This document shows positions 6,725-60,162 of a stretch of 64,000 nucleotides of DNA, piece after piece. The translations under genes and the position numbers were made by a program. Position 1 is the first letter of the stretch, and each line of letters opens with the position of its first letter. The notes beneath the pieces were generated by a model. That model made no database searches. It was not told where the DNA came from and saw only the letters and a list, made by a program, of their open reading frames with translations. Source of the DNA: Candidatus Thiothrix anitrata (GTDB lineage: Bacteria > Pseudomonadota > Gammaproteobacteria > Thiotrichales > Thiotrichaceae); NCBI RefSeq assembly GCF_017901155.1, contig NZ_CP072800.1, positions 645,283 through 709,282 on the forward strand, in the 5' to 3' direction.

Positions 6725-7678
6725 GTGAGTGTAGATATTAAACAATTATTCGATGCCGAACCTCAATCACCCTTGTACGTTGCGATCAATCGGGTGCTGG
6801 TTAAAAACGATCCCAATCTCATGACCATGATGAAACAAGCTAGCTCTAAAATGTGCTTAGCAACGGCACTGACCCCCGGTTTTCGCGGATTTGATCTGAC
6901 TCGCCAGATGGGGGCGTGTCCCATGGGAATGCGTTGGGCAGCAAACACGGATATGGGGCAAGAACTGTCGCATATTTGGATTGATCAGTTCACCTACTGG
7001 GATAGCTGGCAAGCACACGAAGCCTTCCACGAAACTTTTGAAGATGTGGTTGTGGATGCTTGTGCACGTTGCGGCGAAGTACTGCTCGAAGGCCCTGAAG
7101 AACCTATTTATCGCATAGTTCATAGCAGCCTACCGAAACTGATTTCCCAAAATCAGTGGCTACAAAAGCATATGCAGGGTGATGCCGCTGGTTATGCGAT
7201 TGATTCCGGCAAGACGGTGACGGTGATGGCTACACACCGTATCAAGCCGGGCAAAGAAGCAGAATTTGAAGCGGCTGAAAAAGAAACCATGGAAAAGCTT
7301 AAGGAAACCACCGGAATGGTGGGTTACATGATCCTCAAGCGTATCGGTCAATCCACCTTGGGCAGCGGTCATGCGACAGTGGCCTCCATGCTGGAAGATA
7401 TGAAAGATAGCTCAGGTAGCAAGCTTAAGCGTACCGCCGAGGTATGGGAAGGTTACACCCTGCCTGCCGAATATCTGGTGATGGTAGAGTGGGAGAGCCT
7501 GTGTGATGCTCAAGGCGGAATGCCCCATGTGAATGTCAAACCTGAATTGTTATTCATTCATGGCCCTAGGGTGTTGGATAACTGTTTGGCCATGCCTACC
7601 GTGAGGATGTCCACCTCGATGTTCCGTGAGCAAACTTACCGTGAAGTGTTGAATCAGGCGGAAAATGCGATGAGTTAA
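6725..7678 (+). CDS. sor: Sulfur oxygenase/reductase (SOR) homolog
   Basis: The 317-aa protein is collinear with archaeal and bacterial SOR. YVAINRVLVKNDP and KMCLATALTPGFRGF hold the Cys31 equivalent. HEAFHETFED is the H-x3-H Fe site. CARCGEV is the C-x-x-C pair. GPEEPIYRIV and VEWESL...GMPHV are C-terminal blocks. The start is GTG at 6725, with AGGAG 10 nt upstream. Confidence 0.8.
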   Translation: MSVDIKQLFDAEPQSPLYVAINRVLVKNDPNLMTMMKQASSKMCLATALTPGFRGFDLTRQMGACPMGMRWAANTDMGQELSHIWIDQFTYWDSWQAHEAFHETFEDVVVDACARCGEVLLEGPEEPIYRIVHSSLPKLISQNQWLQKHMQGDAAGYAIDSGKTVTVMATHRIKPGKEAEFEAAEKETMEKLKETTGMVGYMILKRIGQSTLGSGHATVASMLEDMKDSSGSKLKRTAEVWEGYTLPAEYLVMVEWESLCDAQGGMPHVNVKPELLFIHGPRVLDNCLAMPTVRMSTSMFREQTYREVLNQAENAMS

Positions 7679-7797
7679 CAGAAAAATCATGGTTTTCTGT
7701 GAGGCTGGCTTGAAATTCTTTTTACTCCATGCTTTAAGATGCTTTACAATCGCCCCCTTACGCGCAGCGACTGCGTTTTTCTTTGAGATTTGGACAA

Positions 7798-36696: not shown

Positions 36697-37840
36697 TGCC
36701 AATATGGCGAATTCGTATCATAAGTGCATAACCCGTTAATCGAGACGGGATGCGGCTTTCCTCATAAGGTCAGAGGCAAGATGTGGTAAAAAGCATCCCG
36801 AAAAACCACTGACGGGAGAGCTTCATGACTTACACACACCTTACCTCTGAGGAGAGGTATTATATCGAAACACGGCACAAGATGAAGGAGTCGGAGTCAA
36901 CAATAGCCCTCGCCTTGGGGCGCAGCCAATCGACGATCCACCGTGAACTGACCCGCAACCGAGGGCAACGCGGCTACCGGCACAAACAAGCGCACGCCAA
37001 AGCACAGCAACGGCATGTTGAGAAGCCCAAGGTGGTCAAGTTGACCCCAGAGCTGGCGGGCAACATTGGTACATTGTTGGAAGAACAGCAGTGGAGTCCA
37101 GAGCAAATCAGTGGCAGGCTGAAAGCCGATGGTAAAGCGAGTGTTTGCCATGAAACCATCTACCAGCACGTGCTGAAGGATAAGCGTGCGGGCGGTAAGC
37201 TATACCTGAACCTGCGCCGTCATGCGAAGAAATACCGCAAACGTTATGGTAGTGGCACTGGCAGTGTCAAAGGCATCCCTAACCGGGTGGACATTGAGGA
37301 ACGCCCGGAAGTCGCCAACCAGCGTGAACGGCTGGGCGACTGGGAAGCGGACACCATGATTGGCAAGAGTCACAAAGGCGCACTGGTGACGCTGGACGAA
37401 CGCAAATCCAAGCTACGCCTAGCTCTACCGGTGGCAAACAAGACCGCAGAGGCAGTGACCAGCAGCATTATTAGCTTACTGTCCGGCTTCAAGGATTACG
37501 TACACACGCTCACCTTCGATAACGGCAAGGAGTTTGCCAAACATGAGCAAGTTGCCCAAGCCATTGGGTGCGAAACGTATTTCGCCAAGCCCTACCATTC
37601 GTGGGAGCGTGGGCAAAATGAGAATGCCAATGGGCTGTTACGCCAATACTTCCCCAAGGCAATGGGGCTATTGGACGTGACCACCCGACAGGTAGTTGAG
37701 GCTGTGCATAAACTCAACAACAGACCAAGGAAGTGTCTGGGGTTCAAGACACCTTACGAGGTGTTCCGCGAGCTATCCGGCATGGATGCTGAAAAGTTGG
37801 TGGGTTATGCACTTATTACTTGAATTCACCAATCTGGTCT
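36697..37840 (+). mobile_element. IS30-family insertion sequence (about 1.15 kb) with imperfect terminal inverted repeats
   Basis: IRL is TGGCGAATTCGTATCATAAGTGCATA (36705..36730). IRR (reverse complement of 37807..37832) is TGGTGAATTCAAGTAATAAGTGCATA, matching at about 21 of 26 positions. An intact transposase lies inside. Confidence 0.75.
36825..37823 (+). CDS. IS30 family transposase (DDE)
   Basis: An N-terminal HTH (IALALGRSQSTIHRELTRN) is followed by the IS30 DDE core (GDWEADTMIG...LTFDNGKEF...NENANGLLRQYFPK). Confidence 0.9.
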   Translation: MTYTHLTSEERYYIETRHKMKESESTIALALGRSQSTIHRELTRNRGQRGYRHKQAHAKAQQRHVEKPKVVKLTPELAGNIGTLLEEQQWSPEQISGRLKADGKASVCHETIYQHVLKDKRAGGKLYLNLRRHAKKYRKRYGSGTGSVKGIPNRVDIEERPEVANQRERLGDWEADTMIGKSHKGALVTLDERKSKLRLALPVANKTAEAVTSSIISLLSGFKDYVHTLTFDNGKEFAKHEQVAQAIGCETYFAKPYHSWERGQNENANGLLRQYFPKAMGLLDVTTRQVVEAVHKLNNRPRKCLGFKTPYEVFRELSGMDAEKLVGYALIT

Positions 37841-38377: not shown

Positions 38378-41300
38378 TTAGCGTGGCACTGCACCGTAGA
38401 TAACGAAGTTCGCGTTGGCATCCGTATTTACGGGGTGCACCATAATATTCCCCAACAAAATGTTAAGGTCATTGCTTGGCCCGGAAAATACCGTCAAACC
38501 ATCCAAATTCAAATCGGTAGCGTAATAACCTGCCATTCTGAAATGCGTCGTTACTAGAGTATTTTCTGGTGCAATTAAGATCGCGCCCAACATAATATTA
38601 GTATCACTACCCGGCCCAGAACCCACTACCGAATTGCTATTATTACTATCACCAGCCCACAGAAACGCCTTATCATCTACCAAATAACGCTGATTTTCAC
38701 CGTAAACCGGATAAGTTGGCTTGGTAAAATCAAGCGGCACGGCAGTTTCACCCAAACTCAACGGCATCGCTGTCATCAGCCCGATATGATTGCGATGACG
38801 CAGCACCACGTAATAGCTTCCCGGTGCGACGCCTCGGAATACAATATTGGTAGAACCGGTTGCTGCATTAATGACATCACCATCACGTTGTAACAAAGCC
38901 GCCTTCCCTGCCACACGTCGTGCCGGATTAGCCACCTCACGCAACTCCAACAATACCCAGTCTACGGGCGCATTCTCCGCTGTCATCGCGGCAACGCTGT
39001 CACTGATACGCTCATCGCCGTGATAATTGAACGGTGGAATACCCTCAAACACCGTGTAACCAAAACTAGTCACCAATTTATTAAACGGCTGCGGCTTGGG
39101 CACATACCCTTTAGTAAACAGCTGATTGTTCATCAAAGCCGTTTGAGCGTTATATGCTCCTTGCAAATACGCCCGCATAGACAAGTGTACACTTGGCTCG
39201 TCGTTGTTATCCAAATAATTAGAAATCCCATCATCATCGCTATCAATCGCATCTGAAGGGTTGCCATCACCATTAGGATCAGCACGTTCAGTGCTTGTCA
39301 ACTTACCGTCACCATCATCATCGGCATCCAAATAATCCGGCTTGTCATCACTGTCGGTATTCCGTGCATCTGCTGGATTACCATCACCATTGGAATCAGC
39401 CATCTCATGCTGAGTTAAAATACCATCACCATCATCATCAGGGTCACGGTAATCGGGAATACCATCACTATCCGTATCTTTTCCGTTACTAAATGGATCT
39501 ACCGTGCCCGACTCAATTTCGTATTGATCAAGAATGCCATCAGCATCTGTATCTTCTGGTACATCGGTAATTTTGACGGTCAATTTTTGGGTAGTACAAC
39601 CGCCTTTACTATCGCAAACCGTAACCTGCACCTCGTAAGTGTTCTTTTTATCCACATCCAACGGACGCTCAAAGTCAGGTACTCCTGTAAACTCCAGCCA
39701 ACCTTTAGCAGGGTGCATCGTAAATGCCCATTTATCTTCCCCACCGGTAATCAACCATGTCAAACCATTGCCTTCGATGTCACCATCCGCATCCGTTGCG
39801 TCATAGTCCAGTACCAATAAGTTGGAAGTGTTTTCCACATAACTTTGGGTATGCGTGGCGGCATTACTACCGGGCAGGATAACGGGCAAAGCGTTTTCAG
39901 TGGTGTCATCGGTAACAGTCACGTTTATGCTCTGCTTTGCCGTCAATTTGCCGTCACTTACCGTCACTTGTACCAGGTAGCTGTTGTTTTTATCCGCATC
40001 CGCAGGCTTTTCATAATCCGGGGCACTAATGAACCGTAATACGCCCGTGTTGGCATTAATCACAAACTTGCTGCCATCGACTCCGCCGCTAATACTGTAG
40101 CTAAGGGTATCACCATCAACGTCGCTACCTTTCACCGTACTCACTGCCGTGGTGTTTTCCAAAACGGAAACGCTCGCGGTAGCGGCTAGGCTGGGAGCTT
40201 CATTGACGTTAACCAAGCTCACAGTTAAGGTCTGCTTTGCCGTCAATTTGCCGTCACTTACCGTCACTTGTACCAAGTAGCTGTTGTTTTTATCCGCATC
40301 CGCAGGCTTTTCATAATCCGGGGCACTAATGAACCGTAATACCCCTGTGCTGGCATCAATCACAAACTTGCTGCCATCGGCTCCACCGCTAATACTGTAG
40401 CTAAGGGTATCACCATCAACGTCGCTACCTTTCACCGTACTCACTGCCGTGGTGTTTTCCAAAACGGAAACGCTCGCGGTAGCGGCTAGGCTGGGAGCTT
40501 CATTGACGTTAACCAAGCTCACAGTTAAGGTCTGCTTTGCCGTCAATTTGCCGTCACTTACCGTCACTTGTACCAGGTAGCTGTTGTTTTTATCCGCATC
40601 CGCAGGCTTTTCATAATCCGGGGCACTAATGAACCGTAATACGCCCGTGTTGGCATTAATCACAAACTTGCTGCCATCGACTCCGCCGCTAATACTGTAG
40701 CTAAGGGTATCACCATCAACGTCGCTACCTTTCACCGTACTCACTGCCGTGGTGTTTTCCAAAACGGAAACGCTCGCGGTAGCGGCTAGGCTGGGAGCTT
40801 CATTGACGTTAACCAAGCTCACAGTTAAGGTCTGCTTTGCCGTCAATTTGCCGTCACTTACCGTCACTTGTACCAGGTAGCTGTTGTTTTTATCCGCATC
40901 CGCAGGCTTTTCATAATCCGGGGCACTAATGAACCGTAATACGCCCGTGTTGGCATTAATCACAAACTTGCTGCCATCGACTCCGCCGCTAATACTGTAG
41001 CTAAGGGTATCACCATCAACGTCGCTACCTTTCACCGTACTCACTGCCGTGGTGTTTTCCAAAACGGAAACGCTCGCGGTAGCGGCTAGGCTGGGAGCTT
41101 CATTGACGTTAACCAAGCTCACAGTTAAGGTCTGCTTTGCCGTCAATTTGCCGTCACTTACCGTCACTTGTACTAGGTAGCTGTTGTTTTTATCCGCATC
41201 CGCAGGCTTTTCATAATCCGGGGCACTAATGAACCGTAATACGCCCGTGTTGGCATTAATCACAAACTTGCTGCCATCGACTCCGCCGCTAATACTGTAG

Positions 41301-43228
41301 CTAAGGGTATCACCATCAACGTCGCTACCTTTCACCGTACTCACTGCCGTGGTGTTTTCCAAAACGGAAACGCTCGCGGTAGCGGCTAGGCTGGGAGCTT
41401 CATTGACGTTAACCAAGCTCACAGTTAAGGTCTGCTTTGCCGTCAATTTGCCGTCACTTACCGTCACTTGTACTAGGTAGCTGTTGTTTTTATCCGCATC
41501 CGCAGGCTTTTCATAATCCGGGGCACTAATGAACCGTAATACGCCCGTGTTGGCATTAATCACAAACTTGCTGCCATCGACTCCGCCGCTAATACTGTAG
41601 CTAAGGGTATCACCATCAACGTCGCTACCTTTCACCGTACTCACTGCCGTGGTGTTTTCCAAAACGGAAACGCTCGCGGTAGCGGCTAGGCTGGGAGCTT
41701 CATTGACGTTAACCAAGCTCACAGTTAAGGTCTGCTTTGCCGTCAATTTGCCGTCACTTACCGTCACTTGTACTAGGTAGCTGTTGTTTTTATCCGCATC
41801 CGCAGGCTTTTCATAATCCGGGGCACTAATGAACCGTAATACGCCCGTGTTGGCATTAATCACAAACTTGCTGCCATCGACTCCGCCGCTAATACTGTAG
41901 CTAAGGGTATCACCATCAACGTCGCTACCTTTCACCGTACTCACTGCCGTGGTGTTTTCCAAAACGGAAACGCTCGCGGTAGCGGCTAGGCTGGGAGCAT
42001 TGTTAGCGACAGGCCTGACGATCACACTTGTGGTGTCGTCTTCATTAGCATTGATATGGCGGTTGAAAGGCGTTGAATCCGGGTCTTCGTTGAATGCATA
42101 AATAATTTCACCGCTAGCGGTATAGCTTGAGGCAGCTCCTACTTTGGCACGTACCTTTAAAGTTTTCACACCGTTTGCGGGCATACCACCAACATTCCAC
42201 TCCCCTGTTGTCCTATTGTAAGCTCCGCCGGAGTCATCGCCGACCCAAGTGACACCCACGGGCCATTCCAAGCCCACCTGCACCAAACTGGTCGGAAGAT
42301 TGGTGGCATTAGCGACTGTCCATGTAAACTCAACCTCACTATTGTAAGCAGGCGTAGGTTTATTCACACTGGCCACCAAAGACAAATCCACTGGTGTCGA
42401 ATTGGTACTGGTAAGCCACTTAAACGCTGCCCCGGAGTCATACCCCGAATCGCCTGCATCAGCCATCGTTAGTTTCACATGGTAAACTTGCCCCGCCTGC
42501 AAACCTGTAATAGCAGTGGTCAAAGTCTTAGTAAAACCATCCAACTGCGAAACCACACTCCCTGTCCCGTTGCCATTATCAATAAAATACTGCGTATTCG
42601 ATAATTGGCACGCTGCACCATCGGCTTGAGAACCAGGCTTGCCACCATTCACATTATTAACCGCGATCGGTGTCTGGGTATTCGGCAACACCGCAGCATT
42701 GCGTGTACCTGTAATGCCTGGCCCAGTGATAAAAAGACCGAATGCATCGTTATACTGGCTGCACACGAATTCCGGGAATTCTTCCGAACCGAAGCTAAAA
42801 ATGAAATTCGCCCGATCCCCTTGCGGCACAATGTCGAACTCAAAGGCTACCGAATCAAACCGTGCATGAGGACTAATCGCCAATAAATCAGGGTCGCGGT
42901 AAATACCCTGAGGCGTATCGTAGCTATAATGCGAGCTGTTGTTGGGTGGAGCAAGACTAGCAACCCGTCCAGTCGTCAAAAAGACACCCGAATCAAAGCC
43001 CAACAAAGACTTCGCACCACTCACAAGCCCGTACTGTTCAAACGCCCCACGGGTAATTTGCGGATTATGAATGCTTAGTCCTGGTCCATCTAAGGCAGCG
43101 GCCATTTGCGCAGGTGTAACATTCGGATTAAAGGTCATCCCTGCACTGACCGTGCTACTCAAGCTGATGAGCAAGCAAGCGAAAAACGACCACAATAAGG
43201 TTTCCGTGCGGATTGTCTTTATTTTCAT
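38378..43228 (-). CDS. Giant secreted repetitive adhesin with DUF11, 7x cadherin-like and thrombospondin type-3 Ca-binding repeats
   Basis: The protein is 1616 aa from ATG 43228, which gives the signal peptide MKIKTIRTETLLWSFFACLLISLSSTVSAG. An N-terminal domain of about 230 aa is followed by a DUF11-like domain and 7 near-identical 100-aa repeats (APSLAATASVSVLENTTAVSTVKGSDVDGDTLSYSISGGVDGSKFVINANTGVLRFISAPDYEKPADADKNNSYLVQVTVSDGKLTAKQTLTVSLVNVNE). A partial BIg-like unit follows, then D-rich TSP3 repeats (DTDADGILD, DTDSDGIPDYRDPDDDGDG, DADDDGDG) and a C-terminal domain of about 350 aa. Confidence 0.85.
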   Translation of the reverse strand: MKIKTIRTETLLWSFFACLLISLSSTVSAGMTFNPNVTPAQMAAALDGPGLSIHNPQITRGAFEQYGLVSGAKSLLGFDSGVFLTTGRVASLAPPNNSSHYSYDTPQGIYRDPDLLAISPHARFDSVAFEFDIVPQGDRANFIFSFGSEEFPEFVCSQYNDAFGLFITGPGITGTRNAAVLPNTQTPIAVNNVNGGKPGSQADGAACQLSNTQYFIDNGNGTGSVVSQLDGFTKTLTTAITGLQAGQVYHVKLTMADAGDSGYDSGAAFKWLTSTNSTPVDLSLVASVNKPTPAYNSEVEFTWTVANATNLPTSLVQVGLEWPVGVTWVGDDSGGAYNRTTGEWNVGGMPANGVKTLKVRAKVGAASSYTASGEIIYAFNEDPDSTPFNRHINANEDDTTSVIVRPVANNAPSLAATASVSVLENTTAVSTVKGSDVDGDTLSYSISGGVDGSKFVINANTGVLRFISAPDYEKPADADKNNSYLVQVTVSDGKLTAKQTLTVSLVNVNEAPSLAATASVSVLENTTAVSTVKGSDVDGDTLSYSISGGVDGSKFVINANTGVLRFISAPDYEKPADADKNNSYLVQVTVSDGKLTAKQTLTVSLVNVNEAPSLAATASVSVLENTTAVSTVKGSDVDGDTLSYSISGGVDGSKFVINANTGVLRFISAPDYEKPADADKNNSYLVQVTVSDGKLTAKQTLTVSLVNVNEAPSLAATASVSVLENTTAVSTVKGSDVDGDTLSYSISGGVDGSKFVINANTGVLRFISAPDYEKPADADKNNSYLVQVTVSDGKLTAKQTLTVSLVNVNEAPSLAATASVSVLENTTAVSTVKGSDVDGDTLSYSISGGVDGSKFVINANTGVLRFISAPDYEKPADADKNNSYLVQVTVSDGKLTAKQTLTVSLVNVNEAPSLAATASVSVLENTTAVSTVKGSDVDGDTLSYSISGGADGSKFVIDASTGVLRFISAPDYEKPADADKNNSYLVQVTVSDGKLTAKQTLTVSLVNVNEAPSLAATASVSVLENTTAVSTVKGSDVDGDTLSYSISGGVDGSKFVINANTGVLRFISAPDYEKPADADKNNSYLVQVTVSDGKLTAKQSINVTVTDDTTENALPVILPGSNAATHTQSYVENTSNLLVLDYDATDADGDIEGNGLTWLITGGEDKWAFTMHPAKGWLEFTGVPDFERPLDVDKKNTYEVQVTVCDSKGGCTTQKLTVKITDVPEDTDADGILDQYEIESGTVDPFSNGKDTDSDGIPDYRDPDDDGDGILTQHEMADSNGDGNPADARNTDSDDKPDYLDADDDGDGKLTSTERADPNGDGNPSDAIDSDDDGISNYLDNNDEPSVHLSMRAYLQGAYNAQTALMNNQLFTKGYVPKPQPFNKLVTSFGYTVFEGIPPFNYHGDERISDSVAAMTAENAPVDWVLLELREVANPARRVAGKAALLQRDGDVINAATGSTNIVFRGVAPGSYYVVLRHRNHIGLMTAMPLSLGETAVPLDFTKPTYPVYGENQRYLVDDKAFLWAGDSNNSNSVVGSGPGSDTNIMLGAILIAPENTLVTTHFRMAGYYATDLNLDGLTVFSGPSNDLNILLGNIMVHPVNTDANANFVIYGAVPR
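39931..41998 (-). repeat. Tandem array of 6.9 x 300-bp near-identical coding repeats inside the adhesin gene
   Basis: The period is exactly 300 bp (TCTGCTTTGCCGTCAATTTGCCGTCACTTACCGTCACTTG recurs at 39931, 40231, 40531, 40831, 41131, 41431 and 41731). Copies differ by 0-6 substitutions. The copy at 40231 is the divergent one. Confidence 0.9.
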
Positions 43229-43438
43229 AGCCCAGTTCTTTTGATTATTATGGTGTGACGTGCCCCGGCACAACACCTGTAACGCCAATGTTACTGTATT
43301 AAACCGTTACTTTTCCACTTTAAGTACGCCGCTTGTCTGATAGTACCGTTAGCGGGTGTTGTGAAGCTGATTTTATCCGCATAATCAATCTTACCCAAAC
43401 TAACCAATCATAATAACAATAACGCACAGGGTACTTGC

Positions 43439-44689
43439 ATGTTCAGACACTACGTTGCCGCAGTCACACTGCTACTGGGAAGTTTGATGTTACCTCAGTC
43501 GGTCGTAGCGAATGTACCCGCTTGGGAATCATGGCGACCCATCTATACGCCACAACCTTACGTACAACCCTATCAACAACAACGAAGGGAATATGCGCCG
43601 CCACGTCAAGGCAATCCGATTTATCGCCAAACAGCCTACCGCCCCCACACCTCCTTCGACAGATCACTTGAATGTGGTTACGCGCAAGCATTACAACTCC
43701 CCGATCAATGTATTCATAAAAATGCCCATACCCGTCATGGCTTGGAAACACTGGTGAATTACCTAAAACGCGTACCACCAGCACAAAAAGCGGGCATTGG
43801 CTGGGTCAATATTTCCAATGCAGCACTGTTGGAAACTGTAAACGAACTACTAAACTGGCACGAAGGGATAACACCCGGCACCCTCCGTGAGCGTTTCTCA
43901 ATGCGTGAAATCAGCACATGGCGCGGCGATGCCAAGGCACAATACACGGGTTATTTCACTCCTTTTCTTGAAGTGCGCCATCATCCTAACAGTGAATTTC
44001 GCATTCCTATTTACCGCAAACCCAACGGCACATTAGCGCAATTGAGCCATGCGGATATTGCCCGGCGAGCGTTAAACGGCAGAGGGCTGGAAATTGCTTG
44101 GACGAATGATCTAGCTAATTTATTTTTTGCACAGGTGCAAGGCTCCGGAATTGCACGCTATCCCGATGGCAAAGAAATGCTGCTGGAATACGGCGGAGAT
44201 AATGGCAAAACGTTCAGCAGTATTGCCCACTACATGAAGCAACGCGGCATCAAACTGCGTAATTACGGCAATGAAGCCATCCGTGATTGGTTGCGGGCTA
44301 ATCCACAACGCGCTGGAGAAATCATTACCTCCAATCCACGTTACGTCTTTTTTAAATTGACGACAGGGTTACCCACCACGGCCTCAGGCACACGTGTGAT
44401 TCCGGGGCATACGGTCGCGGTGGATCGTAATTACATCCCTCTAGGTGCGGTTTTACTGGCAGAAGTGCCACGCATTGACGCAAATGGGCGCGAAGTTGGG
44501 CGGGATTGGCGGCTATTATTTGCACAAGACCAAGGTGGTGACATCAAAGGTGCAGGACGTTTAGACCTTTATACCGGCTTTGGGCGACATGCGGAAAACA
44601 TTGCACACAGCGTTACTGGCTTCCGCAAAGCCTATATGCTGGTGCGAAAACCAGGTTATGGGCGCAACACCAACATTGCTAATCGCTGA
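43439..44689 (+). CDS. mltA: Membrane-bound lytic murein transglycosylase A (MltA family), paralog 1
   Basis: A signal peptide is present, with an MltA domain (GRGLEIAWTNDLANLFFAQVQGSGIARYPDGK) and a 3D domain at the C-terminus. Confidence 0.8.
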   Translation: MFRHYVAAVTLLLGSLMLPQSVVANVPAWESWRPIYTPQPYVQPYQQQRREYAPPRQGNPIYRQTAYRPHTSFDRSLECGYAQALQLPDQCIHKNAHTRHGLETLVNYLKRVPPAQKAGIGWVNISNAALLETVNELLNWHEGITPGTLRERFSMREISTWRGDAKAQYTGYFTPFLEVRHHPNSEFRIPIYRKPNGTLAQLSHADIARRALNGRGLEIAWTNDLANLFFAQVQGSGIARYPDGKEMLLEYGGDNGKTFSSIAHYMKQRGIKLRNYGNEAIRDWLRANPQRAGEIITSNPRYVFFKLTTGLPTTASGTRVIPGHTVAVDRNYIPLGAVLLAEVPRIDANGREVGRDWRLLFAQDQGGDIKGAGRLDLYTGFGRHAENIAHSVTGFRKAYMLVRKPGYGRNTNIANR

Positions 44690-44771
44690 ATTCCTGCAAT
44701 TTGGTAGGCAAAGCGATAATTTACGCATAGAATCAATCCCGAAACTGTCAGTCATAAAATGTTGAGGGCTT

Positions 44772-45872
44772 GTGATGCAACGGAAGATTAGGCTAACCAT
44801 CGGGCTATGGTTATTAGTTGCTTGTTGCGCGGTAAACGCCACGGAAAATACTCCAAAACCCGTCAATTGCGAGGTGCAGATTCGCGGTTCCAGCTTAGAT
44901 TTGGACGAAGCCTGCATCCGCAAAACTCCAGAGTTACGCCGCGCCTTGGTCGACATGGCCGTTTATTTACAATCCACTGATGCCAATAAACTCACCGCAC
45001 CCGGCTATCACGGACCGATGGATAAACAACGCCTGATTAAAACCGTAGAGCAGTTGGTCGCTTGGTTGGACAGCGAACCAAACACCCAACAACCGATTGG
45101 GAAACAGTTCGATTTTTATGCCCTCGGCGATCCACAGGATAAACGTCCGGTACAATACGGTGGGTATTTCACCCCGCAATTGGGCGTACAAGCCCACGAG
45201 TCAGCGGAATACCGCTACCCGGTTTACACCAAACCCAAAGGCGATGCCGCACTTCCTTCACGTCGTGAAATCATGCAGGGTGCGCTGAAAGGTAAAGGTT
45301 TGGAAATTGCTTGGACTAACGACCCGATTGGTTACTACTTCATGCAAGTACAGGGGTCAGGACTCATGCGTTTCCCCGACGGTAAAACCCAGTTGCTAGG
45401 GTTTGCCGGTAAAAATGCACACCCTTACACCAGTATCGGGCGTTATATGCAAGACAAAGGGTATTTACGCACTGACAACTTATCAAATACCGCAGTACGC
45501 CAATGGTTGAAACTAAATCCCGATAAATTGGACGAAGTATTGGGAGCGAATCCATCGTTTGTGTTTTTCCGCCCGGTGAAAGACGTGGTACGCAGCGCAT
45601 CAACCTTACCGGTGATTGCAGGACACACTGCTTCAGTCGATAACCGCATGATTCCTTTCGGTTCGGTTTTATTAGTCGAGCTACCGATACGTGACAACAA
45701 CGGTAAAATCGTGCAACATGAGTGGCGGTTATTGCTGGCCAGTGATCGCCGCTCAGATGATCGTGGCGTTGTCCGCATTGGGATTTACACGGGTGAGGGG
45801 GAAGCAGGCCGCTTAGAGGCTCAACGTTTTTTCCCGGCAGGGAGGGCTTTCCTGCTACAAAGCGGTTCGTAA
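44772..45872 (+). CDS. Lytic murein transglycosylase A family protein, paralog 2
   Basis: GKGLEIAWTNDPIGYYFMQVQGSGLMRFPDGKTQLLGFAGKN has the same architecture as the upstream gene. A signal peptide is present. Confidence 0.8.
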   Translation: MMQRKIRLTIGLWLLVACCAVNATENTPKPVNCEVQIRGSSLDLDEACIRKTPELRRALVDMAVYLQSTDANKLTAPGYHGPMDKQRLIKTVEQLVAWLDSEPNTQQPIGKQFDFYALGDPQDKRPVQYGGYFTPQLGVQAHESAEYRYPVYTKPKGDAALPSRREIMQGALKGKGLEIAWTNDPIGYYFMQVQGSGLMRFPDGKTQLLGFAGKNAHPYTSIGRYMQDKGYLRTDNLSNTAVRQWLKLNPDKLDEVLGANPSFVFFRPVKDVVRSASTLPVIAGHTASVDNRMIPFGSVLLVELPIRDNNGKIVQHEWRLLLASDRRSDDRGVVRIGIYTGEGEAGRLEAQRFFPAGRAFLLQSGS

Positions 45873-47138: not shown

Positions 47139-47255
47139 TCCAAAGCACTTTCATACGTTCAATCTGGACAGAAAGTGGTTTGATACTTGAGTTTTCGGTG
47201 GCCTACTTCTACGCTAGACACTTATCCACCAGCTATTACCATGAGGGGAGCACGT

Positions 47256-48716
47256 ATGCTGAATTGGCGCATCACCACCTTGACTGTTTTGTCCATCTCA
47301 CTGGCTGCTTGCAGCTCTCAACCTGCACCACAAAGTGCAGCATCGGCTCAAAGCAACTACAGTGATGATGTGTTGCAATCGTCACCTGCGAATCCGAGTC
47401 GATCTAATCGTACACAATACACTCCTCCATCTAGCGTAGTACAGCGGCCTACACGTCTTGCCTCAGCGGGCGGTGATAAAACTTTTCGGGGAGCGGGTCG
47501 GTTAAACCGCTTACCGGACAGCATTGCTCACAGTTTGCGGTTACGTGGTTTATCCGAACAGAATATGGGCGCGTACATCCGCCCCGTTAATGGCGGTCAG
47601 CCGCTATTAACCGCGTATGCAGACACACCGCGCAACCCTGCCTCCACCATGAAACTGGTAACCACTTATTCAGCCTTAGGTGTCTTGGGGCCGGATTATC
47701 GCTGGCCTACCGAAATTTACACCGCAGGTAATCTTGCTGGCGACACCTTGCAAGGTGACGTGATTATCAAAGGTTATGGCAACCCCGACTTTCGTGAGGG
47801 TGATTTCCGCCAATTACTGCAAGCGTTACGTGCTCGTGGGATACGCAATATCGCGGGTAACTTTATTATCGACAAAACTTATTTCAACGTACCGAATCAA
47901 GGCAGTATTGATGGTAAAGACGGCGCATCCTACAACGCCCTTCCCGAAGCACTGCTCTACAACGAACGCGGCAGTTGTTACGAAGTACGTGGCAAAGCCG
48001 GACAAATTCAACGCATTTGTCCGATTGCCCCGCGCAACAGTAATGAGCTGAACGTAAACTTGTTTGGTGATTTCTGGCGTATCTGGGTGGGTGAAATGGG
48101 TGGTCATTTAGCTGGTGGGTTGCGTATTGCAGGACTACCGGGCGGCGCACAATTGGTGCACACTCACCACTCAACACCACTGCGAAATGTGATTGCAGAA
48201 ATCAACAAAGACAGCAATAACGTGATGGCGCGTCAACTACTGTTGAGCATGGGCGCGAAACAACACGGCGCACCGGGAACCACTCAAAAAGGTGCGTCAG
48301 CCGTTGGACAATTCCTCGAAAGTCGCGGCTTACGCTTCAGCAATTTACGCATTGACAATGGTTCCGGCTTAAGCCGCTCCGAGCGCATTTCCGCACGTGA
48401 AATGGGTGAGATGTTAGTCGATATTTACAATAGTCCTTACCGTCATGAATTGATGTCATCAATGGCAGTACTGGGCGTGGATGGCACGGTGAAAAACCGC
48501 ATGAAAAACCTCACGGGGCGCGGCAAGTTCAAGACCGGCACACTGCGTGACGTGCGTGCACTGGCCGGTTATTTGACGGCTGCTAACGGGCAACCTTACG
48601 TCATTTCGATTTTACACAACGATGCCAATATTCGTGCATCAGCTAAAGCAGCGCACGATGATTTGGTTGAGTGGGTCTATTACGGTGGGCAAAATAACGT
48701 TGCCAGCGCACGTTAA
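47256..48716 (+). CDS. dacB: D-alanyl-D-alanine carboxypeptidase/endopeptidase PBP4 (S13)
   Basis: [13 protein letters not shown] holds the SxxK motif. SNN and KTG-like motifs are present (DGSGLSR; KTGTL). The start was moved to ATG 47256 (RBS GAGGGGAG), giving the lipoprotein-like signal [19 protein letters not shown]. Confidence 0.8.
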
Positions 48717-53336: not shown

Positions 53337-54371
53337 ATGGACATTACCCAACTGCTGGCCTTTGGCGTGAAAAACAACGCCTCCGACTTGCACCTTTCCG
53401 GCGGAATGCCGCCCATGATTCGTGTTGATGGCGAAATGCGCAAAATCAACTTACCCGTGCTAGAGCACAAGGAAGTCCACGCGCTCGTCTATGACATTAT
53501 GAACGACCATCAACGCAAAACCTATGAAGAACACTGGGAATGCGATTTCTCGTTTGAAATCCCCGGCGTGGCACGCTTCCGGGTGAATGCGTTTAACCAA
53601 AATCGCGGAGCGGGTGCGGTATTTCGTACCATCCCCAGCAAAGTGTTGACGCTGGATCAGCTCGGCGCACCCAGCATTTTCCGTAAAATTGCTGACAATC
53701 CACGCGGTTTAGTGTTGGTTACAGGGCCGACAGGTTCGGGCAAATCCACCACCCTTGCAGCAATGGTCGATTACAAAAACGACACCGATTACGGGCATAT
53801 CCTCACCATTGAAGACCCGATTGAATTCGTGCACCAAAGCAAAAAAAGCTTGGTCAACCAACGTGAAGTCCACCGCGATACCCGTGGGTTTGAAAACGCG
53901 CTGCGTTCTGCGTTGCGTGAAGACCCGGACACCATTTTAGTCGGGGAAATGCGTGACCTCGAAACCATCCGGCTGGCATTGACCGCAGCGGAAACCGGGC
54001 ATCTGGTGTTTGGCACATTGCACACCACTTCTGCCCCGAAAACTATTGACCGTATTGTCGATGTGTTCCCAGCGGCGGAAAAAGACATGGTGCGCTCGAT
54101 GCTGTCCGAATCGTTGCAGGCGGTGATTTCCCAAACCCTGCTCAAGAAAAAAGGCGGCGGTCGGGTAGCCGCGCACGAAATTTTAATCGGTACACGCGCT
54201 ATCCGTAACCTGATTCGCGAAAACAAAATTGCCCAAATGCGCTCATCCATGCAAACCGGGCAAACCGACGGAATGCAAACCCTTGACCAATCACTGAAAA
54301 GTTTGGTTATGAAAGGATTAGTTGATCGCAACGAAGCCCGCCGCAAAGCGGATAGCCCGGATAGTATTTAG
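53337..54371 (+). CDS. pilT: Type IV pilus retraction ATPase PilT
   Basis: SDLHLSGG, Walker A (GPTGSGKSTT), the Asp box and the His box are present. The protein is 344 aa. Confidence 0.9.
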   Translation: MDITQLLAFGVKNNASDLHLSGGMPPMIRVDGEMRKINLPVLEHKEVHALVYDIMNDHQRKTYEEHWECDFSFEIPGVARFRVNAFNQNRGAGAVFRTIPSKVLTLDQLGAPSIFRKIADNPRGLVLVTGPTGSGKSTTLAAMVDYKNDTDYGHILTIEDPIEFVHQSKKSLVNQREVHRDTRGFENALRSALREDPDTILVGEMRDLETIRLALTAAETGHLVFGTLHTTSAPKTIDRIVDVFPAAEKDMVRSMLSESLQAVISQTLLKKKGGGRVAAHEILIGTRAIRNLIRENKIAQMRSSMQTGQTDGMQTLDQSLKSLVMKGLVDRNEARRKADSPDSI

Positions 54372-54380
54372 GAGTAAGGC

Positions 54381-55538
54381 ATGGATCGTGATACCGCCGT
54401 CAGTTACGTACACAAATTGCTTGCCACCATGCTCGAAAAAGGCGGCTCCGATTTATACATCACCGCTGAAGCCGCGCCGTCAATCAAACTCGACAGCGAA
54501 CTGGTCGCGCTGACCAATCAGCCGTTAAATGAAAGCAATGCGCGGATGTTGGTGCGTTCGATTATGAACGACCGCCAGTTAAAGCAGTTTGAAGAAGACA
54601 TGGAATCCAATTTCGCGATTAGCTTACCGGGCAAAGCGCGGTTCCGGGTCAATACCTTCACCCAGCGCGGCTGTGCGGGCATGGTATTGCGCCATATTCC
54701 TAACCACATTCCCGATTTAAAAACGCTGAATTTACCACCAGTCTTGCGTGACATTGCCATGACTAAACGCGGTCTGGTGGTCATGGTCGGGGCAACGGGT
54801 TCGGGTAAATCCACCACGCTGGCTTCGATGGTGGATTACCGTAATGAAAATTCCAAAGGCCATATTGTCACCATTGAAGACCCGATTGAATTCGTCCACG
54901 CACATAAAGGTTGTTTGATTACACAACGCGAAGTTGGGGTGGATACCGCCAGTTACGAAATTGCCATGAAAAACACGTTGCGCCAAGCTCCAGACGTAAT
55001 TTTACTGGGGGAAATTCGTGACCGTGAAACCATGGAATACGCGATTGCCTACGCAGAAACCGGGCACTTATGCCTATCAACGTTGCACGCCAATAGCTCC
55101 AACCAAGCAATTGACCGCATTATTAACTTCTTCCCGGAAGAACGTCGCAACCAATTACTGATGGATTTATCCCTCAATCTCAAAGCGGTGGTCTCGCAAC
55201 GCCTAGTGCGCAAAGCCAAAGACGACGGGCGTTTACCGGCGGTTGAAGTGGTGATCAATACCCCGCTAATGGCAGAGTTAATCCTCAAAGGCGACGTGCC
55301 GGGGATGAAAGATTTAACCGCTAAATCCCGCGAACACGGAATGCGCACCTTTGACCAAGCTCTGTTCGATTTGATTGAAACCCGCAAAATCACCGTGCAT
55401 GAAGGCTTACGCCACGCCGATTCACAAAACGACCTGCGGCTGCGTCTCAAGCTGGAAAGCCGCTTTGCCAAAGATAATGACTTCTTCAAAGGGCTGGATG
55501 ACATGAGTATGGAACCATTGGAGCAACGCCTGAAATGA
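54381..55538 (+). CDS. pilU: Type IV pilus ATPase PilU
   Basis: SDLYITAEAAPSIKLD and GATGSGKSTT are present. The gene lies immediately downstream of pilT, as in Pseudomonas. Confidence 0.85.
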   Translation: MDRDTAVSYVHKLLATMLEKGGSDLYITAEAAPSIKLDSELVALTNQPLNESNARMLVRSIMNDRQLKQFEEDMESNFAISLPGKARFRVNTFTQRGCAGMVLRHIPNHIPDLKTLNLPPVLRDIAMTKRGLVVMVGATGSGKSTTLASMVDYRNENSKGHIVTIEDPIEFVHAHKGCLITQREVGVDTASYEIAMKNTLRQAPDVILLGEIRDRETMEYAIAYAETGHLCLSTLHANSSNQAIDRIINFFPEERRNQLLMDLSLNLKAVVSQRLVRKAKDDGRLPAVEVVINTPLMAELILKGDVPGMKDLTAKSREHGMRTFDQALFDLIETRKITVHEGLRHADSQNDLRLRLKLESRFAKDNDFFKGLDDMSMEPLEQRLK

Positions 55539-56692
55539 CCGCCACTATTCCCCCGACCGAAACCCACGGACATCGCATTCACCCGCTGCTGCACATGATG
55601 GTGAAACAGGGTGCTTCTGACTTGTATTTAACCACAGGCGCGAACGCTTCGATTAAAGTGCGCGGGCAATTACGCTCCATCAGCCGCGAACCGATGCGCC
55701 CCGGCAATATCCGTCAACTTGCCGAAGAAATCCTTGCCGCCAATGAGTTAGATAACTTTTATGCCGATCGCGAACTCAACAAAGGCTATTCAATGCCCGG
55801 TGTTGGGCGTTTCCGCATGAATTTTTACTTCCAGCGCGGGGAAGTGTCGATGGTCATCCGCCATATCCGCTCAGAAATTCCTACACCGGAAAGTTTAAAT
55901 TTACCGCTGGTTTTGAATGATCTGGTGATGCAAAAGTCAGGGTTGGTTTTGTTCATTGGCTCGACTGGTTCGGGGAAATCCACTTCAATGGCGGCACTGA
56001 TTCAACGCCGCAACGAACACCATCAAGGTCATATTTTAACCATCGAAGACCCGATTGAGTACACCTTTCACCACAACCGTTCGATCATTGGGCAGCGTGA
56101 AGTCGGTTTTGATACCTTGAGTTACGCCAATGCGATGCGTGAAGCGATGCGCGAAGCACCGGACATGATTATGGTCGGGGAGGTGCGTGACACCGAAACC
56201 ATGAGTGCGGTCATGGGTTTTGCGGATACCGGTCATTTGGTATTAACAACCTTGCACGCCACCAACGTTATCCAAGCGTTAGAACGCATCCTGTATTTAT
56301 TCCCCAGCGAAAACAAAAGCCGGATATTGATGGATTTATCTCTTAACCTACGCGCTATCGTAGCGCAACGCCTTGTGCCGGGAAAACAGGACAGCTTGCA
56401 CCTAGCCGCTGAAGTTTTAATCAACACACCTTATGTTGCCGAATTAATCCGCAAAGGTAATCTTAATGATTTACGCGATATTATTGCCAAGGGCAGTAGC
56501 GATGGAATGCAAAGCTTTGACCAAGCCCTGTTAAAACTCTACCGCGAAGAACACATCAGCAAAGCCCGCGCCTTGGAATACGCCAGCTCCCGCAACGACA
56601 TGGAATGGCAACTCAATTTTGGTGCTGGTGAAATCACGGCTATAGAATCATCCCCACGGATGCCAGAAATTATTGATGGTTTACCCGCATAA
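55535..56692 (+). CDS. Third PilT/PilU-family ATPase paralog
   Basis: SDLYLTTGANASIKVRG and GSTGSGKSTS are present, with a full-length PilT-like fold. It is translationally coupled to pilU (ATGA). Confidence 0.8.
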   Translation: MTATIPPTETHGHRIHPLLHMMVKQGASDLYLTTGANASIKVRGQLRSISREPMRPGNIRQLAEEILAANELDNFYADRELNKGYSMPGVGRFRMNFYFQRGEVSMVIRHIRSEIPTPESLNLPLVLNDLVMQKSGLVLFIGSTGSGKSTSMAALIQRRNEHHQGHILTIEDPIEYTFHHNRSIIGQREVGFDTLSYANAMREAMREAPDMIMVGEVRDTETMSAVMGFADTGHLVLTTLHATNVIQALERILYLFPSENKSRILMDLSLNLRAIVAQRLVPGKQDSLHLAAEVLINTPYVAELIRKGNLNDLRDIIAKGSSDGMQSFDQALLKLYREEHISKARALEYASSRNDMEWQLNFGAGEITAIESSPRMPEIIDGLPA

Positions 56693-58071: not shown

Positions 58072-58608
58072 TTGGTAACAATAATGATGAAAATGACCAA
58101 ATTGACTGCGTTATGCGCAGTGGGCTACGTGCTATTAGCAACCCAAACGCCGCTACTGGCGGCACAAGAATGCAATAGCAGATCAGCGTTACCCGCCAAT
58201 GGCGAACGCTTCACCTCTCACTCAAATGGCACAGTAACGGATAAACAAACACAACTCATGTGGAAGCAATGCATGGAAGGACAACGCGGCGCACGTTGCT
58301 TGGGTCAAGCCGCCATCTTGCCGTGGGATCGTGCCTTGCAAACAGCCTACACCGCCAGTCAGGTAAACTTTGCGGGTCACAGTGATTGGCGTTTACCGAC
58401 AGTCGAGGAATTACTCAGTTTGGTAGACAAACAATGCCGCGAACCAGCCATTAACTTACGCTTTTTTCCTGCCACACCGGCAAGCAGCTTATGGTCGGGC
58501 AACCAATCCGACCCTAATGCTTGGAGTGTCGATTTTAGTGCAGGCCACCCGTTCCAGTCTTTCAAGGCTGGCGGTAAATACGTCCGCTTGGTGCGCAACT
58601 TACACTAA
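58072..58608 (+). CDS. Secreted DUF1566 (Lcl C-terminal domain) protein
   Basis: A signal peptide is present, with NGTVTDKQTQLMWKQC...DWRLPTVEELLSLVD...LWS. This is characteristic of DUF1566. Confidence 0.7.
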   Translation: MVTIMMKMTKLTALCAVGYVLLATQTPLLAAQECNSRSALPANGERFTSHSNGTVTDKQTQLMWKQCMEGQRGARCLGQAAILPWDRALQTAYTASQVNFAGHSDWRLPTVEELLSLVDKQCREPAINLRFFPATPASSLWSGNQSDPNAWSVDFSAGHPFQSFKAGGKYVRLVRNLH

Positions 58609-58758
58609 ACCGGTGTCAATGCATCTCGCGACCACCCCATACTGGCACTGGTGTCGGTTGAATCTGCTCCCCTGTGGATAGATCGACATCAGTACCGGTA
58701 TACCTTTACGGACTATTCACTCTCTTCAAAAATAGCCACTCGGGCAGCGAAAAAATAC

Positions 58759-58787
58759 TTTACATTAGTAAATGCTAATATTATAAT
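58759..58787 (+). promoter_or_regulatory. Near-consensus sigma70 promoter for the Gly/Asn/Tyr-rich secreted protein gene
   Basis: The -35 element is TTTACA (58759..58764). A 17-bp spacer follows, then the -10 element TATAAT (58782..58787). The SD AGGAG lies at 58823. Confidence 0.6.
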
Positions 58788-58835
58788 TCTCTCCAAGATA
58801 CACATAGTTACTAACACTTTGCTAGGAGATTACTC

Positions 58836-59282
58836 ATGAAATTACAAACTATCGTTTTTGCTACCCTGATCGCAATGTCTGGCACTGCTTCTGCTGAATT
58901 CTTCGGTGACAATGGCACTGCAACTGGTCAAGGCAACAACCAAGGCTCTGTAAACACAGCAGCAAACACCAATGGCTACGGCAACGGTGCTGGCGACCTG
59001 AACGGTTTCAGCAAAAACAAAGGCACTGCTGACGGCGAAGTTGAATTCAGCATCAACTTCAAAGGCAAAGGCAAAACTGACATGGCTAGCGACATGGCTG
59101 CTAACGGCAAAGGCAACGGCGACTGGTATGCTGCTGGTAACGGTTATGGCTACGGCGACACCAAGAACAACGTTTACGCGACTGGTCAATCTTCACAAGA
59201 TGGCAACAACTTTGCTCCTATGATGCCAGCAGCTCCGGCAATGCAAGCTCCTGCGGCTCCAGTAGCAGCACCTGCTAAGTAA
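58836..59282 (+). CDS. Small secreted Gly/Asn/Tyr-rich low-complexity protein, candidate sulfur-globule (Sgp-like) or other structural envelope protein
   Basis: A signal peptide (MKLQTIVFATLIAMSGTASA) is followed by GNGYGYG / GYGNGAG motifs and a Pro/Ala-rich tail. Codon choice is strongly biased (GGC, AAC, GCT). It is flanked by a consensus promoter and a strong terminator. Confidence 0.6.
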   Translation: MKLQTIVFATLIAMSGTASAEFFGDNGTATGQGNNQGSVNTAANTNGYGNGAGDLNGFSKNKGTADGEVEFSINFKGKGKTDMASDMAANGKGNGDWYAAGNGYGYGDTKNNVYATGQSSQDGNNFAPMMPAAPAMQAPAAPVAAPAK

Positions 59283-59309
59283 TCACTCGCTTACCAAGTG
59301 ATTAAAAAA

Positions 59310-59331
59310 GGCTCCTTCGGGAGTCTTTTTG
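59310..59331 (+). terminator. Rho-independent terminator
   Basis: A GGCTCC-TTCG-GGAGTC hairpin with a GNRA-like tetraloop is followed by TTTTT. It is preceded by a second hairpin, AATCACT...AGTGATT. Confidence 0.7.
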
Positions 59332-59412
59332 CGTTTAGACGTTACGGCATATAGACGAATGCCCAAAAAGTTTGCTATTAAACCCGCTGATTTTTCATGG
59401 TAATGCAACATT

Positions 59413-60162
59413 GTGACCGAAGCACCTCTTACCCCCACTCTTCTCCCATTTTTTGGGGATGAATTCGCGACACTGACTAAAGCGGTCAGTGACTTAGGCT
59501 TTGACGGCGTGTTGTACTCTTTCTACCCCAAGCCGATGTACATGAGTAAAGATGTGCAACCCGTGCTGCACTATTCCGTCAGCCTTGCCCCTTTCGTGGC
59601 GCATTACATTCAGCACAATTACGGCAACCGGGATTTTGTGCTGCGGCTGGCATTACAGGATTGGAAAAAAGCGATTGACTGGTGGGAAGAAATTAACGCT
59701 GGTCACGTCAGTCGCGAAGAACGCGCCGTCACCGAAGATGCCAGAAAGCACTTTGGCATCCAGTACGGCCTATCTGTCCCGGCACTGCGGGGAACCTTTG
59801 CGATTGCCGGAATCTCTGTCATTAGTAAAAACCAGAGTTTGGCACACTTCCAAAATCTGAAAAAAACGCATCTCGCGCAACTTTTCACGCTTGCCAGCGA
59901 CTATCACGCTACTGTGATTAACTCCAAAGAATCGCTGCGCTTTTTCATTCAGCCGCTACTGGAAAATTTGAATACCACGCAAAAAACGGTACTCAAACAC
60001 CTGTTGACCGGCAAGCCGATGAAAAGCATTCCGCATACCTTCGGGATCGCACCGCGTTACGCAGAAAAAGTATTACTCGGCATTCGGCAGGAATTTGGCA
60101 ACATTACTAGCAATGAGCTGTTGTACATACTCGGCATGGTTAACATTCACGAATATTTGTGA
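59413..60162 (+). CDS. LuxR-family regulator (autoinducer-binding-like N-domain + C-terminal HTH), solo
   Basis: The protein is about 249 aa. The C-terminal HTH-like segment is NTTQKTVLKHLLTGKPMKSIPHTFGIAPRYAEKVLLGIRQEFG. No luxI lies nearby. The start is GTG. The family call is tentative. Confidence 0.45.
   Translation: MTEAPLTPTLLPFFGDEFATLTKAVSDLGFDGVLYSFYPKPMYMSKDVQPVLHYSVSLAPFVAHYIQHNYGNRDFVLRLALQDWKKAIDWWEEINAGHVSREERAVTEDARKHFGIQYGLSVPALRGTFAIAGISVISKNQSLAHFQNLKKTHLAQLFTLASDYHATVINSKESLRFFIQPLLENLNTTQKTVLKHLLTGKPMKSIPHTFGIAPRYAEKVLLGIRQEFGNITSNELLYILGMVNIHEYL

Follow-up and report, generated by a model that had tools for sequence, protein, structure and literature searches.

To our knowledge, the experimental characterisation of sulfur globule proteins (Sgps) has been almost confined to Allochromatium, together with a single study on Beggiatoa. 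Mutants of Allochromatium without SgpB and SgpC showed no oxidation of sulfide or thiosulfate and carried no sulfur inclusions, and the Sgps of A. vinosum were found to differ in role, with SgpC controlling globule expansion (PMC10386293). In Beggiatoa leptomitoformis, globules no longer formed once the sgp gene had been disrupted by a transposon, and mass spectrometry identified the protein itself (PMC7356093). Thiothrix is a classical sulfur-globule-forming genus (PMC10386293), and the present work concerns a small gene lying within a 64,000-nucleotide stretch of DNA, here called the window, from contig NZ_CP072800.1 of Candidatus Thiothrix anitrata (positions 645,283 to 709,282). The original prediction, made from the DNA sequence, was that the gene encodes a secreted, abundant protein resembling those of the sulfur globule envelope. 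The comparisons presented below bear out the resemblance, and the 148-residue product is probably a diverged SgpA/B-type (CV1-type, Pfam SGP) sulfur globule protein belonging to a Thiotrichaceae subfamily. Such a gene is expected biology for Thiothrix, and it falls in a known family without causing surprise.

A phmmer search of 5.8 billion proteins yielded 20 homologues, nearly all of them unannotated and one deriving from an 'uncultured Thiotrichaceae bacterium', while two (P0017, E 1.6e-7, and P0020) were already annotated with the Pfam family SGP, 'Sulphur globule protein' (PF17228). When aligned together with the window protein, giving 21 sequences, they show a near-invariant signal peptide and a single sharply conserved segment, ADGEVEF-x-I-x-FKGKGKTDM, which is flanked by variable Gly/Asn-rich arms. 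This core contains most of the invariant columns of the family (G63, G67, F71, K76 and G79), and 14 of the 21 sequences match the SGP model, with a best E value of 2.2e-6. When 1.84 billion representative sequences were searched exhaustively with the family profile, 119 proteins were recovered, which grade from the Thiothrix type, via P0041 (GDGEMDFSMKFKGRARADM) and P0050 (ADGEMDFSMTFKGRGRGNGNM), to a Chromatiaceae type; members of the latter, including P0101, P0115 and P0123, carry GDAAGSGDFSMNFSGRGRTNMRGYG and score 36–56 bits against PF17228. The bridge protein P0050 matches the family profile with an E value of 1.3e-14 and PF17228 with 40.7 bits, and a further search linked the Chromatiaceae-type members to proteins that are named 'sulfur globule protein CV1' at NCBI. 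Pairwise BLASTP comparisons, adjusted for composition, gave E values of 4e-18 and 5e-9 for the window protein against P0017 and P0315, respectively, both of which are PF17228 proteins.

The two groups were also compared as profiles, using hhalign, with a query consisting of Thiotrichaceae-type sequences only, from which the three rows annotated as PF17228 were excluded, and a target comprising eight PF17228-type proteins (seven at or above the gathering score and one at 26.0 bits) and three Beggiatoa-type Sgps. When signal peptides were included the probability was 97% (E 7.5e-11, 67 columns), and when they were omitted it was 95% (E 6.3e-8, score 49.8), with a 30-column alignment that falls exactly on the core. 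When the columns of the query were reordered at random 100 times, a procedure that retains both composition and per-column conservation, the score was 9.6 ± 1.9 with a maximum of 16.7 and, as judged from these profiles, the relationship to accepted SGP members is significant beyond composition. The shared core aligns as ADGEVEFSINFKGKGKTDM in the Thiotrichaceae-only profile and GDFSMNFSGRGRTNM in the PF17228-positive proteins, while the core segment of the window protein aligns with the DFSMNFSGRGRTNM core of PF17228 proteins and with DFNMSMGGGGRG of the Beggiatoa Sgps. The central motif, consisting of an acidic residue, F-x-[MI]-x-[FM] and G-x-G with basic residues, is present, with EVEFSINFKGKGKTDM lying opposite GDFSMNFSGRGRTNM (P0115 and P0101) and GDFNMSMGGGGRG (Beggiatoa). 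When the three Beggiatoa and Thioflexithrix Sgps alone were used as target the match was weak (E 0.027, 12 columns) but the same core was picked.

Confident matches to other low-complexity families were looked for in Pfam, NCBIfam and the PDB, and none was found. The PDB sequence search gave chance matches only, for example to lysozyme at E ~0.1, and two further candidates were dismissed as noise arising from composition: Pfam TrAA12 scored below its threshold and matched a Gly/Asn-rich linker, and NCBIfam ser_rich_anae_1 reached 19 bits relative to a cut-off of 650. An exact-sequence look-up of the 148-residue protein found no record.

The product begins MKLQTIVFATLIAMSGTASA|EFF and, judged by eye and by rule, carries the n-region, h-region and AXA motif of a Sec signal peptide. 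The signal peptide that had been proposed is near-invariant across about 78 homologues, and it aligns with the signal peptides of the PF17228 proteins. The predicted mature protein has 128 residues, a mass of 12.8 kDa and an isoelectric point (pI) of 4.6; Gly, Ala and Asn contribute 18%, 16% and 13% of its residues, respectively, and Cys and Arg are both absent. Two short repeats and a Pro/Ala tail, which had been recognised earlier, were located at residues 47–53 (GYGNGAG), at residues 101–107 (GNGYGYG) and in the C-terminal 22 residues, APMMPAAPAMQAPAAPVAAPAK, that end in Lys; peptides of the window protein also include GTADGEVEFSINFK. The protein therefore shows the small size (about 9–15 kDa), the Gly-rich, repetitive and Cys-free sequence and the Pro/Ala C-terminus that characterise the SGP family.

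We propose that the precursor would be exported via the Sec pathway and cleaved after Ala20 to release an acidic, largely disordered Gly/Asn/Ala-rich protein which, by homology with the proteins of Allochromatium and Beggiatoa, would assemble into the thin protein envelope of the extracytoplasmic elemental-sulfur globules that Thiothrix deposits during sulfide or thiosulfate oxidation. VEFSINF, followed by KGKGK, could form an amphipathic beta-strand and a basic Gly-rich turn that likely act in self-association or in contacting sulfur, while the low-complexity arms and the Pro/Ala tail may serve as spacers. It is also conceivable that the protein acts in the periplasm in handling or scaffolding sulfur or polysulfide, and only transiently, in nucleation or in size control like SgpC of Allochromatium, rather than as bulk envelope material. 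The differences in role among the A. vinosum Sgps (PMC10386293), the varying lengths of the Thiothrix paralogues and the C-terminal helical extensions of some family members would all be compatible with such a function, but the protein has no Cys for carrying sulfane sulfur, its core motif belongs to the CV1 (SgpA/B) type and its expression hallmarks (see below) point to a bulk structural product, and we consider a transient role very unlikely.

When 185,579 species genomes were scanned with a peptide pattern, 166 related loci emerged; the best 80 of these were kept, and 78 family open reading frames (ORFs) were re-identified in them. These best 80 loci derive almost entirely from Thiothrix, Thiolinea and other Thiotrichaceae, and there are several copies per genome, with at least four loci in T. 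caldifontis, at least five in T. fructosivorans and at least two in T. lacustris. These copy numbers fit the published count of six predicted sgp genes in T. caldifontis (PMC10386293), which may correspond to the present family. One of the T. fructosivorans paralogues (L013) is located on the 153-kb plasmid pTfr153, and no second family copy occurs among the ORFs of the window. A longer subfamily, present in Thiothrix loci L038, L040, L042 and L058 (246–278 residues) and L074 (190 residues), starts MKHTKIAL...ASAEFFDGFDNG and carries neither the conserved TTTACA promoter nor AGGAG. Thiothrix genomes annotate the family genes, which score below the Pfam threshold, as encoding hypothetical or unknown proteins, and the family goes unmentioned in the comparative-genomics papers on Thiothrix that were consulted.

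The original prediction had envisaged a Thiothrix-like host that carries SOR (sulfur oxygenase reductase), and both parts are supported by the window. Its aspartate carbamoyltransferase (PyrB) is 100% identical to NCBI entries for 'MULTISPECIES [Thiothrix]' and Candidatus Thiothrix anitrata and the host is therefore a Thiothrix, while an SOR gene at 6725–7678 (+ strand) matches PF07682 with 213.8 bits; the locus thus lies in a globule-forming host. A stand-alone homologue of EF-G is encoded directly 3' of the SOR gene (7783–9894, + strand).

Several results weigh against reading the product as a sulfur globule protein. Its match to PF17228, extending over model positions 7–89 of 93, scores 18.4 bits (E 0.004), which lies below the Pfam gathering threshold of 26.7 bits. 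As a calibration, we used the Sgp sequences of B. leptomitoformis, B. alba and Thioflexithrix provided in the supplement of PMC7356093, which score 27.7, 22.7 and 21.4 bits, respectively. Scores below the threshold are therefore normal outside the Chromatiaceae, on which the model evidently centres, and are compatible with membership. The composition also departs from that of the compared Sgps. Although the product had been described as Gly/Asn/Tyr-rich, which holds for Gly and Asn, it is poor in Tyr (4% versus 11–16%) and relative to those Sgps it is rather Asn/Ala/Lys-rich; Pro amounts to 5% versus 5–17%, there is a single Trp, where P0101 and the Beggiatoa proteins have four to six, Lys, Thr and Asp are more abundant, and the core carries Lys instead of Arg. 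The mature protein is hydrophilic, with a grand average of hydropathy of -0.74, and the Beggiatoa Sgps and compared PF17228-type proteins are hydrophilic too. AlphaFold2, supplied with the 21-sequence alignment, produced no confident structure (mean predicted local distance difference test score 37.4, predicted template modelling score 0.13), and for this reason the beta-strand idea is drawn from the sequence pattern and a fold search was unjustified.

Conserved synteny was sought, and none of seven neighbouring genes, the five immediate ones included, was kept beside the homologues, nor is any sulfur-metabolism gene adjacent. Homologues were also detected in Cocleimonas and in a metagenome-assembled genome labelled Leucothrix mucor, organisms that may or may not form sulfur globules; a literature search for Cocleimonas together with such globules found nothing. 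Moreover, a simple envelope would seem to need fewer paralogues than the four to six or more present in each genome, and no transcriptomic or proteomic data on Thiothrix Sgps were found in the literature. Given the composition, the Pfam score and the homologues in Cocleimonas and the Leucothrix-labelled genome, some or all of the paralogues might be secreted low-complexity proteins of Sgp ancestry that lie outside the globule envelope and build another structure specific to Thiothrix, for example sheath, holdfast or rosette material, the gonidial surface or a biofilm matrix. This would accommodate the many paralogues, including the plasmid copy and the 246–278-residue variants, as well as the missing linkage to sulfur genes and the departure from the Tyr/Pro/Trp-rich Sgps of Beggiatoa and the Chromatiaceae type. 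We nevertheless judge it unlikely, given that specific similarity was found to the SGP family alone, with an empty PDB search and matches far under threshold to other Pfam and NCBIfam models, that the full architecture from signal peptide through to Pro/Ala-Lys tail is common to the Sgps, and that Thiothrix, Thiolinea and other Thiotrichaceae make up the overwhelming majority of the organisms that could be identified in the best 80 loci.

The gene is also surrounded by indirect hallmarks of high expression, which would suit an SgpA/B-type globule protein. Its promoter, TTTACA-17-TATAAT (58759–58787), matches the sigma-70 consensus at 11 of 12 positions and is the sole promoter-like site in the scanned region 58400–59700, but such a lone match is not significant by itself given that shuffled sequence averages 1.1 sites. 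Its significance rests instead on comparative evidence, since -35 and -10 elements matching at 10 or more of 12 positions occur in 67% of 76 homologue upstream regions and in 1.8% of random 130-nucleotide segments from the same loci. Most homologue promoters read TTTACA-17-TA(T/G)NAT and end 44–62 nucleotides 5' of the ATG, with AGGAG 7–9 nucleotides from the start; most share an A-rich stretch at an UP-like position, and their leaders are likewise A/C-rich. RNA structure was sought in the 5' leader and start region of the window gene (67 nucleotides), and the folding energy was only -4.1 kcal/mol (z = +0.64). Downstream from the gene, two hairpins total -22.3 kcal/mol (z = -3.8), and none of 200 shuffled sequences was as stable. 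Hairpins resembling terminators, with U-runs and in many cases a UUCG loop, lie downstream of 63 of 79 homologues and occur in 17 of 312 random segments. The terminator was missing from the output of the consensus scan, which we attribute to the stem reaching into the flanking A-run and U-run. These comparisons uphold the near-consensus promoter, the ideally spaced AGGAG and the double-hairpin terminator with U-run of the original prediction, except that the terminator loop is a UUCG (UNCG-type) tetraloop and not GNRA-like.

Codon usage, too, is more biased than in the neighbouring genes, as had been claimed. The gene has an effective number of codons (Nc) of 36.4, the smallest value among the 51 ORFs of the window (minimum 37.7 and median 47.2 for the others). 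None of the 24 Gly codons is GGA or GGG, and Asn is encoded by AAC at 15 of 17 positions, Ala by GCT or GCA at 23 of 25 and Asp by GAC at seven of eight. The EF-G homologue is the closest in codon preference of the remaining 50 ORFs, at 2.8 standard deviations over the mean, indicating that the bias runs in the direction expected of translationally selected, abundant products. A likelihood test of the codon usage against the window background gave a modest z of -2.1, and the Nc and the EF-G comparison are more informative. Promoter and A-tract, open leader, strong Shine-Dalgarno sequence, optimal codons and tight terminator together predict an abundant product, such as a stoichiometric coat requires, and the gene is a free-standing monocistronic unit that is probably strongly expressed.

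A near-identical relative on an ENA metagenomic contig (L087) encodes a protein about 93% identical to that of the window. In its terminator the sequence GGAGCC converts a G-U pair to G-C, while within the gene (2386–2658) an in-frame change of AAA to TAA occurs at codon 91, with the remainder and the terminator intact, so that the change represents a nonsense variant or else an error in sequencing. The upstream neighbour there is a Proton_antipo_M gene in place of the Lcl_C gene of the window. The interrupted relative is what might suggest that the window gene is itself a chance ORF or no longer functional, a notion effectively refuted by the intact ORF in the window, by its extreme codon bias and by the more than 100 homologues in which signal peptide, core, promoter, ribosome-binding site and terminator are conserved.

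Conservation in 32 aligned upstream regions extends well past the promoter hexamers, following the pattern CTTTACATTAG-N6-CTAATATTA(T/G)NAT, and in the window the whole promoter block at 58758–58787 is conserved far past both the -35 and the -10 sequences. It includes an inverted repeat, ATTAG-N6-CTAAT, both arms of which are near-invariant while the six-nucleotide centre varies. Recognition by sigma-70 needs no such spacer conservation, which suggests that the repeat is a candidate binding site for a regulator, and the gene may be regulated through it. The exact 19-base motif TTTACATTAG-N6-CTAATATTA occurs once in the window. Of 88 loci, 40 contain it exactly once, in each case just 5' of the matched sgp-like gene, and the rest of the sequence of these loci, up to about 12 kb each, lacks it. 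Sixteen of 54 exact matches in a metagenome scan precede Sgp-like ORFs, and the remainder come mostly from AT-rich contigs. One match (L135, Ga0114931_10006438, 2710–2734, - strand) precedes an rpoH-like (sigma-32) ORF on a contig with 54% G+C and could reflect either chance or a shared regulator; the same sample also yielded the Sgp-like genes L100, L127 and L142. A rather doubtful possibility is that the Sgp-like genes of the Thiotrichaceae constitute a dedicated regulon, in which the shared promoter would drive every paralogue and its repeat would be bound by a regulator that senses sulfur, sulfide or the redox state, and that the short, long and coiled-coil-tailed paralogues build compositionally distinct envelope layers or different structures instead of one redundant coat. 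The LuxR-type gene directly downstream was considered as the regulator but is not supported because it recurs beside a homologue only in the near-identical contig L087. Coordinates of the gene, its signals and this neighbour are collected in Table 1.

Table 1. Features of the sgp-like gene and its immediate surroundings, numbered from the first nucleotide of the window.
Feature	Position	Strand	Basis
A-tract AAAAAA 5' of the -35 hexamer, UP-element-like (putative function)	58750..58755	+	sequence reading
-35 hexamer TTTACA	58759..58764	+	consensus scan; invariant in ~50 homologue promoters
Inverted repeat ATTAG-N6-CTAAT in promoter spacer, candidate operator	58764..58779	+	alignment of 32 upstream regions
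-10 hexamer TATAAT, 17-nucleotide spacer	58782..58787	+	consensus scan; TA(T/G)NAT at same position in homologues
Predicted 5' leader, ~42 nucleotides, A/C-rich, unstructured	58794..58835	+	predicted transcription start
Shine-Dalgarno AGGAG, 7 nucleotides 5' of ATG	58824..58828	+	within homologue-conserved block GCTAGGAGA
Coding sequence, 148 residues, SgpA/B-type sulfur globule protein homologue	58836..59282	+	ORF; ATG start, TAA stop included
Sec-type signal peptide, residues 1–20, predicted cleavage ASA|EFF	58836..58895	+	n/h/c regions and AXA by eye; homologue conservation
Conserved core ADGEVEFSINFKGKGKTDM, residues 65–83, hydrophobic/polar alternation then GxGx	59028..59084	+	alignment
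Pro/Ala-rich C-terminal tail ending in Lys, residues 127–148	59214..59279	+	sequence reading
First downstream hairpin, 8-bp stem, 9-nucleotide loop, begins at stop codon	59280..59304	+	folding
Intrinsic terminator GGCUCC-UUCG-GGAGUC, flanked by A-run and U-run (UUUUU)	59305..59330	+	folding
LuxR-type autoinducer-binding-domain gene, directly downstream	59413..60162	+	PF03472, E 5.6e-14

The immediate neighbours of the gene encode BioD (bioD, - strand), an Lcl_C-domain protein, the LuxR-type autoinducer-binding protein, an alpha/beta hydrolase and a DsbH-like thioredoxin protein. Elsewhere in the window, three consecutive genes at 53337–56692 (+ strand) encode secretion or twitching ATPases of the T2SSE family (PilT/PilU-like), and a tandem pair of paralogues for MltA-domain lytic transglycosylases at 43439–45872 (+ strand) is followed by a D-Ala-D-Ala carboxypeptidase gene (S13) at 47187–48716. 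An insertion sequence-type transposase gene (HTH_38, rve) at 36825–37823 (+ strand) adjoins an ORF of 1636 residues at 38378–43288 (- strand).

The presence of the SgpA/B core and architecture in Thiothrix proteins provides a usable signature for annotating sulfur storage in the genomes and metagenomes of Thiotrichaceae. Moreover, VEFSINF-KGKGK, as the single conserved segment, offers a place for probing envelope assembly, and the sharply conserved promoter with its candidate operator may give an entry point to the regulator of sulfur-globule formation.

Among the described systems that come closest to the window protein are the CV1-type proteins of PF17228. These likewise carry a Sec signal peptide ending in ASA, and their mature forms, of ~10–13 kDa, are acidic, Cys-free and of Gly-rich low complexity. 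The order of elements is common to both, extending from signal peptide and aromatic pair through a Gly/Asn/Tyr-rich arm, the core and a Gly-rich arm to the Pro/Ala tail, and the core itself can be written [DE]-F-[SN]-[MI]-x-[FM]-x-G-[RK]-G-[RK]-T-[ND]-M for both groups. The aromatic pair at the mature N-terminus is EFF or DWF in the Thiothrix type and WWG in PF17228 proteins. Differences are that the window protein, known here from its sequence, has a longer Asn/Gly-rich N-terminal arm and, relative to the Chromatiaceae-type protein P0101, has a much lower content of Tyr, a lower one of Trp and a slightly lower one of Pro, and more Lys, Thr and Asp.

SgpC (CV3) and SgpD of A. vinosum are likewise secreted, repetitive proteins of the sulfur globules. 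SgpD, a helical and possibly coiled-coil protein, is nearly confined to the Chromatiaceae (PMC10386293). Such helices are missing from the window protein, and a helical C-terminal extension occurs only in other members, some of them of the Thiothrix-type family and some of the PF17228 group. Among the former, P0009, P0011, P0013, P0015, P0016 and P0018–P0025 carry an extra module of helical or coiled-coil appearance (e.g., QLKAMWEAQRKQAEEMLKRIEAAQK), and the C-terminal extensions of the Chromatiaceae-type PF17228 proteins P0308 and P0338 resemble it.

The Sgps of Beggiatoa (ALG67575.1 and EIJ43877.1) and Thioflexithrix (OUD13142.1) come, in turn, from filamentous colourless sulfur bacteria and have the same architecture as the window protein, with a core, GDFNMSMGGGGRG, that aligns with VEFSINFKGKGKT. 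They are comparable in mature size (11–13 kDa) and pI (~4.5), and their Pfam scores are similarly weak. The Beggiatoa proteins differ in being rich in Tyr and Pro (~15% each), with repeats of the (G)YAPAPY type, and Beggiatoa carries one sgp copy per genome (PMC10386293), in contrast to the several copies in Thiothrix. Pro/Ala tails ending in Lys or Glu recur throughout, with ...AAPVAAPAK in the window protein and ...APQAPAAK, ...PAPAAPEAK and ...APVAPVAK in relatives, and tails like that of the window protein are found both in the Beggiatoa Sgps (...PAPAAPEAK) and in the PF17228 proteins P0050, P0315 and P0325.

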